A stretch of 64,000 nt of DNA. Source: a virus. A model generated the notes under the pieces. It had not been told where the DNA came from. It made no database searches and worked only from the letters and a program-made list of their open reading frames with translations. Location of the stretch: the UHGV virus genome UHGV-0293664. The stretch is one strand, 5' to 3'. Numbering within the stretch: the stretch's first letter is position 1; each line of letters starts with the position of its first letter. The position numbers and the translations under genes are program-made. Positions 24,957 to 29,035 of the stretch are shown piece by piece.

Positions 24957-25219
24957 TATTGTTCCTCCACCATAACTTCGCCAAGAATTTCTATGCAGGC
25001 ATCCATTTCTGTAACAACCAAGGTGTGAGGTAGTTCTGCAAACACCTTTCTGAACAGGTCAAATACCCCAACATATATGTTTGCAGGATGTGATTTTACA
25101 ACAAGTGCTGTATTCACATCCCCAAGTTCATCAACAAACATCACCACAGTGCCTGGAGCTACTGAAGACAGATACTTCTTAGTTTTACGGTTTGATGCAA
25201 ATTTTAACTCTGTTGCCAT
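24956..25219 (-). CDS. Small protein, tandem paralog 1
   Basis: 87 aa; AAGGAGG RBS; same length and motifs as paralog 2. Confidence 0.55.
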   Translation of the reverse strand: MATELKFASNRKTKKYLSSVAPGTVVMFVDELGDVNTALVVKSHPANIYVGVFDLFRKVFAELPHTLVVTEMDACIEILGEVMVEEQ

Positions 25220-25234
25220 AAATAATCTCCTCCT

Positions 25235-26716
25235 TTATTTAGCGTACTCGATTAATTCCACAGTTTTCCCAAAGCTCGGGATATAATTTTTATTATACCC
25301 CTCGGTGAGAACCCATAAAGTATCGTACTTTTTCCACTTGTTGTCAACAGCCTTTTGTTCAAAGTTATGCTCAAAGTATAGGTCGGTCAGGACGATGACA
25401 TCTTTTGCATTCGGTATATTGGCATCCAGATACTCGAACACGCAAGCAGCTGTTGTGCCCCATGTTGAGTGGACCTCATAGTTGATCATCTCATCTATGT
25501 TACCGCGAGTGTATACTTTAACCTCTCCAACCTCAGTTGACCAACAGAACATTGTAACCTTAAACTCTTTATACAGATTGCACAATCCGGTGATTTCATT
25601 GAACATTTTCTTTAAAGTTCTTTGAGAGATCGAGCCAGAAACGTCTAAAGCCACCACAATATCTATGGTGTTTTCCGGATTACGACCAGGAACAATAACG
25701 TGCTGGTTCTTGTTTATAGCCCCAACTTTTCGCATTGTGCTGGTCAAAGACCCAGATCGGCGACCAGGTTTTCTGTAGGTCAGTTCAGCCTTTCGTTTAG
25801 ACAACATGCGTTGCTTAATGATATCTATATAGTTGATTACAGGCTTGCCTCTGTTCTTGACAAACTCACGCACCGCCTCAGGGCAACGACCTCCGGAAGC
25901 TTGCATTGCTGCCTCCAGCATGTCACCAGAATCCTGCATGGCCTGATCTTTATCAGATTGGCTGATTACAGGTTGTGGCCGATCATACCCCATAGCCTTC
26001 CCAAGATCATCGCTGGTGCCACCGTTCCCGCTCATGTGATCATCGGTTTGTCGCTTATCTCCTTGGGAGTTATCACCTTTACCGCTCTTACTTTTACCGT
26101 TATTTTGATCTCTTTGCCTATCAAGAACTGCATAGACGTTCTCAGCAATCCATCCATGAAACTTCATGTCGCAGTAGCAGCTGGCTAAGAAACCAAAAGG
26201 CTTACCTTTTACGAACGTAGTGCTTTTCCCCTTCGGGAAGAAAACACAAGGGGGCTTGCTAAAGTCAACCACAAGACCTGTGTTGATAACGTGATCACAA
26301 GCAATATTGAACAGTTCCGGCTCAAAGCTTTTGCCACGGACCAGGTGATCACAGATAATATGCCCCACCTCATGTGACAGAAGGAAAGCCACCTCTTTCA
26401 CAGATTTGGGGGAATAGAAAACTTCAGCCATCTCAAACTGCTCTCCAGTTAGAGAGGCCTTGAGAATAGCCTTGCGTTCATCAGCCAACCCCATAATGAA
26501 CTCAGGACTGTAATAGATGCGTTTATGGTCGGTTGCCATGGTGGAGCACCATGTGTGGTTTTCTACGAACTGTAACCCTGACAGCAGTGTGCCATAAAAC
26601 GGCAGCTTTTCAAGGAGATACATACGTGCAGCCTGTAACATTCTCAGGGCATCATCTTTCTGTGAGGCAATGATTTCTGAACTTCTGCTATCCATTAAAA
26701 CTCCAGAAGGGGCCAT
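25235..26716 (-). CDS. vWA-domain protein with N-terminal zinc-metallopeptidase motif
   Basis: 493 aa; HEVGH (HExxH) and VVALDVSGSIS (MIDAS DxSxS). Confidence 0.7.
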   Translation of the reverse strand: MAPSGVLMDSRSSEIIASQKDDALRMLQAARMYLLEKLPFYGTLLSGLQFVENHTWCSTMATDHKRIYYSPEFIMGLADERKAILKASLTGEQFEMAEVFYSPKSVKEVAFLLSHEVGHIICDHLVRGKSFEPELFNIACDHVINTGLVVDFSKPPCVFFPKGKSTTFVKGKPFGFLASCYCDMKFHGWIAENVYAVLDRQRDQNNGKSKSGKGDNSQGDKRQTDDHMSGNGGTSDDLGKAMGYDRPQPVISQSDKDQAMQDSGDMLEAAMQASGGRCPEAVREFVKNRGKPVINYIDIIKQRMLSKRKAELTYRKPGRRSGSLTSTMRKVGAINKNQHVIVPGRNPENTIDIVVALDVSGSISQRTLKKMFNEITGLCNLYKEFKVTMFCWSTEVGEVKVYTRGNIDEMINYEVHSTWGTTAACVFEYLDANIPNAKDVIVLTDLYFEHNFEQKAVDNKWKKYDTLWVLTEGYNKNYIPSFGKTVELIEYAK

Positions 26717-26728
26717 TGGCCCCTGTTA

Positions 26729-27718
26729 TTATTTAACGTGTTTGAAAATACCTGCCAACTCGGTCATTGTCATGCGGGTGGTCTTCATAAGATCTGTCAT
26801 AGCTTTCTCCATAATTGGGGATACTACCATAAAGTTTCCTTTAGTGAAACCTTTATTCCAGTCGGTCACCAACAGTGGTTTAAGTCCAGCTCCGAGACGT
26901 TCACCAGTTAAAGCACAACATTTTCGAATGTATGTGCTCTTAAACTGGCTGAATGACAGATCCACTTTCATACCTGCATCGTAGAACGTCTGGCAATAGA
27001 AAGTGTAAGCTTTGGCAATCTCAACATCGTCAGGCAGTGCAGGAACCTCTTCTGTAAGCTCTTCTTCGACCCCTTGAGGCTCTTTTTCCTCTTCGTAAGC
27101 CTGTTGCGTCATCTCTTCAATCTCCTCTACTACAGGCTCGTTTACAATGTCAGAAATGTGCTTGTTGGCTCCACGATTAGCCATGAAGTTTTTAAAATCC
27201 TGCATTGGTGACATATCTTCCTCCCATTCTTCGTCAAAGAGTGCCAGTTTATCCTCTTCCGTTCCATATTGCAAGATGAAATCTTCAAAAGTGTAATCAC
27301 CTTTCAATTTCTCCATACGCTCTTCGCTCAGGTGGAGCATCATCTGCTGGACAATTTTTCGATCAGTTTTGTCTTTAATCAAGACTGCGGTCTTTTTATC
27401 TACCAGACAGTCCTTTAGAGAGTTGCATCTCAACCCTACCACACAACAGTTATCAACCGCATAAGGGCCTTCATCATCTATCCGCTCTAGAGATGGGTAG
27501 AAAGGATTTCCCAGTCCGTTTTCATCCGTGTGCATGTCGAAAGGTATAAGGGTATAGTCGCATACTCCATCTCCTAAAAGTTTTTTACCAAATAGGAGAT
27601 ATTCTTCCCATGACAGGTTGAACTCTATATCTCGTTTCCGTGCATTATTCTGTTTGCGTCTGTATTTTTTGAGCAAGCGCTCTAACTCTTCTGGTGTATA
27701 ATATTTTTCAAGATTCAT
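26729..27718 (-). CDS. Putative HNH-like (endonuclease VII-type) nuclease with acidic linker
   Basis: FNLSWEEYLLF...C...ERIDDEGPYAVDNCCVV module, weaker second copy; ATG 27718 preferred over in-frame TTG 27784. Confidence 0.4.
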   Translation of the reverse strand: MNLEKYYTPEELERLLKKYRRKQNNARKRDIEFNLSWEEYLLFGKKLLGDGVCDYTLIPFDMHTDENGLGNPFYPSLERIDDEGPYAVDNCCVVGLRCNSLKDCLVDKKTAVLIKDKTDRKIVQQMMLHLSEERMEKLKGDYTFEDFILQYGTEEDKLALFDEEWEEDMSPMQDFKNFMANRGANKHISDIVNEPVVEEIEEMTQQAYEEEKEPQGVEEELTEEVPALPDDVEIAKAYTFYCQTFYDAGMKVDLSFSQFKSTYIRKCCALTGERLGAGLKPLLVTDWNKGFTKGNFMVVSPIMEKAMTDLMKTTRMTMTELAGIFKHVK

Positions 27719-27749
27719 GAGTTGTCTCTTGTGCTCTGTGGGTGGAGAA

Positions 27750-27778
27750 ATCTTACCAAGGGCCTGGGAAGATGTCAA
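27750..27778 (-). promoter_or_regulatory. sigma70-like promoter for leftward operon
   Basis: On minus strand TTGACA, 17-nt spacer, TAAGAT. Confidence 0.5.
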
Positions 27779-27791
27779 CCTCAAAAACGTG

Positions 27792-27820
27792 TTGACTTTA
27801 CTCTAAATCCTCGATATAGT
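27792..27820 (+). promoter_or_regulatory. sigma70-like promoter for rightward operon
   Basis: TTGACT, 17-nt spacer, TATAGT. Confidence 0.6.
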
Positions 27821-27860
27821 GCACCCATTCGAAAGAAAACTAGCATAGGAGTACTTATTC

Positions 27861-28760
27861 ATGGCAAATCTTAACAGTTTTAGCACCAGGTGGCAACAGG
27901 ATATAACAACCAATCTTTCAGCTGGAGATATCCTTTCTGCAATTTACGAGGCTTTGGATGATAAAGCTACTTCAAGATCGGTTTGTACTAATCCGCTAAT
28001 TCCTATAGTGATGAAGGTAATTGAGCGGAGGTTGGTATCCGGGTCTGATAAGTGGACATACCTTGATAATGGAGGGCATACTTACTCCAACGGATATGTT
28101 GATATAAAAGTGGAATACGCAGTATCATACCGCCGGAGCGGTTCTGTAACTTTCAACTTCTCTGGAGGTTTTCGATCTCTGGCTACTTCACCTTTTGTTT
28201 CCTCAGAGGAGAAGTATGAGCTGCCATTTCTTTGGATGATGGCTAACGCGACAGGAAAAACCCCCGTTAGCATCCGAGTAAAATACAACTACAACGGATC
28301 TAGTAAGATCTATGCCGAAAGTGCCTCAGCAAGTTTTTATTTTGTGATGGGGGATGGAATCCTCAAACATATAAAGATGTGCGATATGCATGATGTTATA
28401 AATGAAGTGACTGATAAGAATGTTCTAGTGAAAGACCTCAATAATTTTTATACACCTGGAGACTATTACGTCAACCGCCCACTGTGCATCTTTAATGCCG
28501 CACACCCTTTAGGTGAGTATTTGATCGCCAATAGCGATATTGCCAATAACCGCTTCGAGGTAGCAAGAGTACAGAATGAGGTATTGACATCTTGCAAGAG
28601 CGGTGATAAGTTTACCGAAGAAGAGATGGGTGTTTTAGAAATGATGGGATATAAGTGTAGCCTTTGGGTAGATGAGGTGTTTAATGACTGCATCTATGGA
28701 CAGGATATTTACCCGTTAAAGAAGTATACTGATTCCAGTTTAATTTACGCGGAGATTTGA
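27861..28760 (+). CDS. Hypothetical protein
   Basis: 299 aa; AGGAG RBS. Confidence 0.55.
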   Translation: MANLNSFSTRWQQDITTNLSAGDILSAIYEALDDKATSRSVCTNPLIPIVMKVIERRLVSGSDKWTYLDNGGHTYSNGYVDIKVEYAVSYRRSGSVTFNFSGGFRSLATSPFVSSEEKYELPFLWMMANATGKTPVSIRVKYNYNGSSKIYAESASASFYFVMGDGILKHIKMCDMHDVINEVTDKNVLVKDLNNFYTPGDYYVNRPLCIFNAAHPLGEYLIANSDIANNRFEVARVQNEVLTSCKSGDKFTEEEMGVLEMMGYKCSLWVDEVFNDCIYGQDIYPLKKYTDSSLIYAEI

Positions 28761-28762
28761 CT

Positions 28763-29035
28763 ATGATGAAGTCATGTGGTAGTGTATATTATGTTGGTGA
28801 GAATGTTCAGGCAGACAGCGTGTGGAAATCCATTAAGTCTACCACCGACGATGCCTTCTTGAGCGGGTTATGTTTTCCCAGCCCTGGGGACACTCTCCCT
28901 TACCCTGGAGATTTTGTTGTCAACAAGATGGACGGTTATACCGTGTGCCTGATGGTTGAAAAAATCTTTTTAGACACTAGACACAATCACCGTCTTGTGT
29001 TAAAATTTCAAGAATGTAAAATGACAATTGCCTAA
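28763..29035 (+). CDS. Small hypothetical protein
   Basis: 90 aa; ATG 28763 preferred over track TTG 28757. Confidence 0.45.
   Translation: MMKSCGSVYYVGENVQADSVWKSIKSTTDDAFLSGLCFPSPGDTLPYPGDFVVNKMDGYTVCLMVEKIFLDTRHNHRLVLKFQECKMTIA

Follow-up and report, generated by a model that had tools for sequence, protein, structure and literature searches.

An rV5-like phage relative of T4 Srd carries two diverged copies of a PacI-type His-Me finger, the first with a putative Tyr-based active site

A minus-strand gene (26729..27718) of the virus genome UHGV-0293664 was analysed within a 64,000-nucleotide stretch of that genome (hereafter, the window, in whose positions all coordinates are given). The window represents an rV5-like Escherichia coli phage (Vequintavirus); its region 25200–28800 shares 96% identity with phage EmilHeitz and 90% or more with about 118 records besides. 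The gene is a genuine open reading frame (ORF) and a complete coding sequence of 329 amino acids plus stop codon, orthologous to rV5 gp11 and EmilHeitz bas49_0056, and its peptides are identical to those quoted in an earlier interpretation made from the DNA letters without database searches (hereafter, the sequence-only reading). We found that the protein consists of two modules of the HNH fold class, also known as beta-beta-alpha-metal (His-Me finger), and that the first module retains the residues of a PacI-type site, whereas the second has lost most of them. We favour, at about even confidence, a role in early host takeover, with one module as a catalytic domain of the PacI type and the other as a dead copy that serves in binding.

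The full-length AlphaFold2 model (mean predicted local distance difference test [pLDDT] score 78.7; about 90 or higher in each module) divides the chain into four segments, all encoded on the minus strand. The core of the N-terminal module (N-module; amino acids 10–110; 27389..27691; pLDDT 84–96) is a PacI/Srd-type beta-beta-alpha-metal domain, and sequence conservation delimits the domain as amino acids 10–125. It continues into a helical extension (amino acids 111–181; 27176..27388) that is partly common to T4 Srd, up to about amino acid 143. A disordered, Glu-rich linker follows (amino acids 182–227; 27038..27175; pLDDT <50), the fastest-evolving part of the protein and one rich in indels, and leads to the C-terminal module (C-module; amino acids 228–329; 26732..27037), a degenerate second copy of the fold without the Arg, Tyr and helix Asn of the first. 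The acidic stretch is wider than the linker itself (amino acids 144–228, with 27 Asp or Glu residues and a net charge of −22), in agreement with the Glu-rich linker described in the sequence-only reading. Because the spacers between modules in the family at large (30–126 amino acids) are not generally acidic, the long acidic linker is specific to the lineage of this gene. Unlike the linker, which diverges fast and varies in length, the N- and C-modules are equally conserved among homologues (e.g., 76/76, 70/78, and 50/48% identity).

Taken together, profiles, intermediate sequences and predicted structure indicate that the protein arose by internal duplication and consists of two diverged copies of one fold. 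This relationship is visible only through these three routes, because direct Smith-Waterman alignment of the N- and C-modules gave a score no better than chance (z = −0.7). Alignment of the N and C sub-alignments with hhalign was marginal (P = 0.0025), but it fell in the register that the sequence-only reading had proposed for its weaker second copy. A domain hidden Markov model (HMM) that was built without any C-module and without the lineage of this gene matched amino acids 232–303 (17.6 bits, E = 1.3e-7). The C-module also aligned to amino acids 30–80 of T4-like Srd in BLASTP (E = 0.001), and a small, non-circular C-module HMM matched the Srd N-terminal domain (E = 2.6e-7); a stronger match to Srd (3e-15) from a larger model, Cmod_big, was set aside, since that model had taken in the domain of Srd itself and the match was therefore circular. 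In the AlphaFold2 models, the two modules share the same order of secondary-structure elements. The existence of a second copy, which the sequence-only reading had anticipated, is therefore borne out by profiles and structure, though not by pairwise comparison.

Among the relatives of the protein, P0163, P0171, and P0172 are short (170–190 amino acids) and contain one domain each, in which the N and C HMMs match the same residues (e.g., at 2e-24 and 7e-14), as the two HMMs also do in T4-like Srd. Their domain combines a lead-in of the C-module type (LP.D..IA.KY ... FTQFKKLL.RK.C) with an intact ER/GY/N/N..K site of the N-module type. These proteins look like evolutionary intermediates, or like the ancestral single-copy form.

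With respect to the fold, Foldseek searches with the full-length model returned HNH nucleases almost exclusively, all at weak significance (E ≥0.04). When PDB sequences were searched with the single sequence or with a narrow profile (A1), nothing relevant emerged, and only the broader domain profile reached PacI (E = 4.8e-4; PDB 3ldy/3m7k). An HMM restricted to the N-module (177 domains) matched PacI residues 32–124 (23.2 bits, E = 4.5e-4 at PDB size), with an alignment that pairs the ER/DR, GY, N, and N..K motifs of the two proteins; C-module profiles gave no PacI match by sequence. We regard the modules as homologous to PacI, a relationship that is marginal by sequence and clear in the predicted structures. 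The sequence-only reading had likened the N-terminal module to endonuclease VII-type HNH proteins. The HNH fold class holds, and for both modules, but the affinity is with PacI-type His-Me fingers rather than with endonuclease VII, because it is PacI that the profiles reach by sequence. Endonuclease VII belongs to the same His-Me finger superfamily, and a PHROG family labelled 'endonuclease VII' was matched (1.6e-10); however, its catalytic Asp-His pair (part of the catalytic set D40/H41/N62), Cys4 zinc site, and domain-swapped dimer have no counterparts in this protein. An HMM search against the HNH and Endonuclease_7 families, proposed in the sequence-only reading as a check, yielded no matching Pfam model (Endonuclease_7, PF02945, included) and only labels at the PHROG level; NCBIfam and PADLOC models likewise gave no match to the protein, and neither T4-like Srd nor nine diverse relatives had a match to the domain in these collections.

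PacI belongs to group 20 of the His-Me fingers of Jablonska et al. 2017, a small, His-less group consisting mostly of giant-virus proteins, in whose description Srd is unmentioned (PMC5714182). Three papers describe PacI as an enzyme without the catalytic His, in which an omega-loop Tyr takes over while Asp and Asn hold a single metal (PMC5714182, PMC4081073, PMC3384342); two of them also describe two Cys4 zinc sites per subunit (PMC4081073, PMC3384342). In both PacI and the N-module, the catalytic His is replaced by Arg within a D/E-R dipeptide; N-module residues align with the Tyr of the omega-loop GY in PacI, with its structural and helix Asn residues, and with its Lys, and a C-x-Y-x-G motif of PacI (CGYCG) has its counterpart in CDYTL. 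The two systems differ in that PacI is a homodimer of 142-amino-acid subunits with an 8-bp specificity and two Cys4 zinc sites, whereas the phage protein carries two copies in a single chain, one of them dead, separated by the long acidic linker. In addition, the phage protein has kept only one Cys of the four at the HNH-flanking site, Glu stands in place of the metal-binding Asp, and the gene has no restriction-modification context.

The putative active-site stretch (27413..27487, minus strand) comprises E78-R79, Y86, N90, N99, and K102, which align with PacI D92-R93, Y100, N104, N113, and K116, respectively. We took a census of these positions in 177 N-domains of the family, pairing residues through the HMM alignment to PacI. 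Glu or Asp occupies the position of E78 in 175 domains, Arg that of R79 in all 177, Tyr that of Y86 in 176, and Lys that of K102 in 165; N90, the structural Asn before strand beta-2, is invariant (177/177), and N99 in the core helix is Asn in 171 domains and His in five. The six residues are conserved at 93–100% across relatives that are about 25% identical. The canonical catalytic His at the end of strand beta-1 is Arg throughout the 177 family domains, corresponding to R79 in the N-module and to V284 in the C-module. At the equivalents of PacI C63/C66/C109/C112, only the first Cys is kept (C53; 175/177), and the other three positions hold T/S, T/G/S, and A/V/C, so that the Cys4 zinc site is lost. 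The sequence-only reading had proposed to check whether metal-binding Cys and His residues are conserved; three of the four zinc cysteines are gone. It had also tied its nuclease proposal to an HNH-like fold together with a catalytic His and Asn; the protein has this fold and the Asn but lacks the His.

What remains in the C-module is the fold, together with the first Cys (C268) and with D286 and N295, the latter two likely structural. Its Arg has become V/I, its Tyr V/F/I, and its helix Asn Q/E/A and others, and the Lys is gone. The combination that marks the PacI type (a D/E-R dipeptide, an omega-loop Tyr, and a helix Asn) is found in the N-module and not in the C-module, which appears to be catalytically dead. 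Because the C-module folds without the E-R, Y, N, and K residues that the N-module retains, this comparison is an argument that selection on the N-module site has acted on function and not on structure. Nuclease activity of the N-module is still plausible, since the module keeps the substitute site of the PacI type.

If the favoured interpretation of an early host-takeover nuclease is correct, the N-module would be a one-metal, Tyr-dependent phosphodiesterase of the PacI type. A metal ion would be held by E78 and N99, Y86 in the omega-loop would replace His as the base or nucleophile, and R79 and K102 would assist. The C-module would be a non-catalytic copy that provides a second surface for binding nucleic acid or a partner protein. 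The single chain may thus correspond, within one molecule, to the PacI homodimer but with a single live site, which would make it a nicking or single-site enzyme. It would contribute to host takeover by acting early in infection on host nucleic acid (DNA or RNA), a biological role that would be the same as that of T4 Srd in accelerating host mRNA decay.

Several points weigh against this interpretation. Nuclease activity, of this protein and of the whole family, is a prediction. The sequence similarity to PacI is marginal (E of about 5e-4) and the structural match is based on AlphaFold2 models; the N-module is linked to PacI by a sequence profile and a matching order of secondary-structure elements only, and Pfam and the other collections searched fail to recognise the domain. 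Both PacI zinc sites are absent, and Glu replaces the metal-binding Asp in 153 of the 177 domains. Even for PacI itself, the catalytic role of the Tyr is described only as 'likely', and it is from our alignment and the description 'omega-loop' that we equate this Tyr with Y100. Finally, T4 Srd is the only characterised homologue, and its mode of action, as far as it is described in PMC4980113 and PMC13232886, consists in binding RNase E.

This last point leads to the comparison with Srd. The protein aligns with T4-like Srd over amino acids 8–143 (BLASTP, E = 4e-9, 25% identity), and the N-terminal 90–140 amino acids or so are homologous, with ER, GY, GN, and the helix Asn all kept in Srd; both are early phage genes. 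The resemblance has been on record since 2013, when the rV5 genome paper described gp11 as 'probably a Srd homolog' with bidirectional promoters adjoining (PMC3606486), and it is the source of the label 'anti-sigma factor'. Srd differs in being a protein of 248 amino acids with a single domain copy (amino acids 7–92), whereas the rV5-type protein has a second, degenerate copy and the acidic linker. Amino acids 93–248 of Srd match neither module, and the C-module of the phage protein matches the Srd N-terminal domain instead; a possible degenerate C-module hidden in the Srd C-terminus, picked out by eye (KRGYPLNCSIF), had no HMM support. We do not regard the protein as an Srd ortholog, since Srd is single-domain and its C-terminal half is unrelated.

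In PMC4980113 and PMC13232886, which cite Qi et al. 2015, T4 Srd is reported to bind host RNase E, in its N-terminal half, and to stimulate it, and not to be a DNase. The phage protein could accordingly be a non-catalytic, Srd-like adaptor whose conserved residues form a protein- or RNA-binding surface, and which binds the catalytic N-terminal half of RNase E and stimulates host mRNA decay. We consider this a serious but distinctly less probable explanation, at roughly one half of the confidence placed in the nuclease. In its favour are the homology of the N-module to the Srd N-terminal domain, the published accounts of Srd function just cited, the early promoter of the gene, and the loss of both the zinc site and the general-base His. 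However, T4-like Srd has one domain copy, and because its C-terminal 160 amino acids are unrelated to the phage protein, the part that binds RNase E may not be common to both. Moreover, the full PacI-type constellation (ER, GY, GN, and YN..R) is strictly retained, even in Srd, which would be unexpected for a pure adaptor. A wider proposal, which we advance tentatively and hold to be less likely than not, is that the whole Srd-like family, T4 Srd included, may be Tyr-dependent nucleases of the PacI type. Their common two-module form would be an active/dead pseudo-dimer in a single chain that nicks or cleaves host nucleic acid, and the stimulation of RNase E by Srd would work at least partly through an intrinsic endonuclease.

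The loss of most site residues from the C-module has precedents in the MH1 domain of SMAD and the nuclease-like domain of ENPP, devolved His-Me fingers that keep the fold and bind nucleic acid or ligand without catalysis. The C-module appears to be a finger of this sort, although neither precedent has a detectable sequence relationship to the phage protein and both occur in other contexts. The whole protein could by analogy be a nuclease-dead DNA-binding regulator, in which both modules bind DNA and control the switch from early to middle transcription. His-less His-Me fingers have been recruited as DNA binders (PMC5714182), a two-domain architecture suits recognition of a bipartite site, and the authors of the rV5 paper speculated on a role in a transcriptional switch (PMC3606486). 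Yet only the N-module conserves Tyr, Asn, and E/D-R, the protein has no helix-turn-helix domain, and no repeated operator-like sites turned up, in analyses that included no search aimed at them. We therefore rate a regulator of this kind as improbable.

Database labels for the gene and its relatives are contradictory. PHROG 3118 ('HNH endonuclease') gives a full-length match (7e-112), and amino acids 13–110 also match PHROGs that bear the labels endonuclease, endonuclease VII, 'decoy of host sigma70', and 'Srd anti-sigma factor', with the Srd-labelled families PHROG 4592 and PHROG 1400 at 2.9e-12 and 4.2e-10, respectively. EmilHeitz bas49_0056 is annotated 'anti-sigma factor', and other records read 'HNH endonuclease', 'anti-termination', 'type II restriction endonuclease', or hypothetical. 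There is little basis for the labels 'anti-sigma factor' and 'endonuclease VII', because the fold is of the PacI type without the catalytic His and only the first copy has a Tyr-based site. That the protein is nevertheless an anti-sigma factor, or a decoy of sigma-70 or sigma-S, as stated in many GenBank records and in PHROG 4592/1400, is very unlikely. The designation was propagated from an old annotation of T4 Srd, 'similarity with rpoD', and was repeated in the rV5 paper (PMC3606486). The fold is beta-beta-alpha-metal; no Pfam sigma-70 region or anti-sigma model was found at E ≤1, nor any NCBIfam match, and the experimental work on Srd, as cited in the passages noted above, points to RNase E and not to sigma.

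An exhaustive profile search detected 11,587 cluster representatives (E ≤1e-3); the best 150 of these are mostly 230–350 amino acids long. The N-module plus C-module architecture was present in 137 of 172 proteins analysed. A further, word-indexed homologue search with the domain profile gave 27 unnamed matches without Pfam domains. Two long relatives, P0123 (852 amino acids) and P0153 (827 amino acids), contain four tandem copies of the Arg/Tyr/Asn domain, and in the repeats that we inspected a Cys-rich, zinc-ribbon-like segment precedes each copy. Their sequences suggest an origin in eukaryotes or giant viruses, matching the reported giant-virus bias of PacI group 20.

In at least 117 of 119 related records, the gene occupies a fixed locus between the same neighbours (117 of them cover at least 80% of a query that spans the gene and both neighbours). 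The homologue in a Seunavirus (51% identity) again lies after a divergent promoter and upstream of the gene for a DUF2201 metallopeptidase/VWA protein (45% identity), from which one small gene separates it; a Vibrio phage homologue has a different neighbourhood. No paralogue of the domain was found elsewhere in the 64-kb window, so the 'first' HNH protein of the sequence-only reading is unrelated to this one. These data bear on the first role suggested for the protein there, that of a free-standing homing endonuclease. PacI-like HNH genes are already a recognised category in phages, and those of lactococcal Skunavirus phages, which vary in presence, are presumed to be homing enzymes (PMC12724721); the PHROG label 'HNH endonuclease' would also fit. 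Because presence of the gene is near-universal at a fixed position, and considering the synteny with the DUF2201 gene in Seunavirus at 45–51% identity, the gene's own conserved early promoter, and the lack of paralogues in the window, a homing role is very unlikely. Among the related records, sixteen GenBank entries (MG0656xx) are named 'Campylobacter phage' with the host Campylobacter jejuni, although they are about 95% identical to E. coli rV5-like phages over this region; they look like mislabelled or contaminating coliphage sequence.

The gene has its own sigma-70-type promoter on the minus strand (27750..27778; TTGACA-17-TAAGAT with a TGn extended −10; 10 of 12 matches). Both of the ORF extents named in the sequence-only reading exist (26729..27784 from a TTG and 26729..27718 from an ATG), but the ambiguity is settled by the promoter: the start codon is ATG 27718, because TTG 27784 lies upstream of the −35 box, outside the transcript. 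Distant homologues start at the position equivalent to ATG 27718. EmilHeitz carries an identical promoter apart from changes in the spacer, and the Seunavirus homologue is preceded by a promoter at the equivalent position (TTGACT-17-GATAAT). Many database entries (P0001 and other 346-amino-acid ones) begin 17–21 codons upstream, with MLTSIETIDT..., and are probably over-extended at the N-terminus, because they run across the mapped promoter. A second sigma-70-like promoter (27792..27820, plus strand; TTGACT-17-TATAGT) serves the divergent neighbouring gene. The gene is the first after this divergent promoter region and is followed by about 15 minus-strand genes in the 96%-identical EmilHeitz; with its own promoter, it therefore heads a leftward block of that size, as the sequence-only reading had proposed for its accessory operon. 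Transcription presumably takes place early in infection by the host RNA polymerase, the timing being a deduction from the promoter.

The next gene of the block (25235–26716, minus strand) encodes a DUF2201_N metallopeptidase (HExxH) with a VWA-like domain (Pfam, 4e-28 and 3.5e-11). Between the stop codon of the Srd-like gene and this gene lies a GC-rich hairpin, AGGGGCCATTGGCCCCT (26708–26724; seven pairs, six of them G-C), which encloses the first ATG (26716) of the downstream ORF. Within the operon, this hairpin may serve as an attenuator or a partial terminator, or else as an RNA-stability element. ATG 26695 is the more likely start of the DUF2201 gene, because GGAG precedes it and the EmilHeitz annotation uses it. 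PHROG 1314 and several GenBank records name the DUF2201 gene 'HNH endonuclease' or 'anti-sigma factor', an apparent spill-over of annotation from the adjacent Srd-like gene. DUF2201 usually has a MoxR ATPase as its partner; the EmilHeitz annotation places one on the opposite strand, about 2.6 kb past the start of the Srd-like gene. Many records call the divergent neighbour (27861–28760, plus strand) a 'putative alpha-1,3-fucosyltransferase'; it had no Pfam match at E ≤1 and matched only PHROG 12338 (function unknown).

The gene and its similarity to Srd have been known since 2013, and it represents no new kind of system. Three points seem not to have been described in the literature that we searched, namely the connection of the Srd family with PacI, the zinc loss, and the active-plus-dead tandem architecture. 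The gene is conserved throughout the Vequintavirinae, including many E. coli, Salmonella, and Klebsiella phages used in therapy or biocontrol, and it carries four contradictory database labels (anti-sigma factor, HNH endonuclease, type II restriction endonuclease, and anti-termination). The analysis flags a very large phage domain family that lies outside Pfam, and the active-plus-dead tandem would be a tidy natural example of pseudo-enzyme duplication. If the family-wide nuclease proposal were true, it would extend to at least 11,000 sequence clusters; cleavage would possibly proceed via a covalent Tyr intermediate, and the cuts made by the endonuclease of Srd would create entry sites for RNase E. 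Placing this protein and T4 Srd among PacI-type His-less fingers provides a concrete hypothesis on early host shutdown that can be tested with point mutants.
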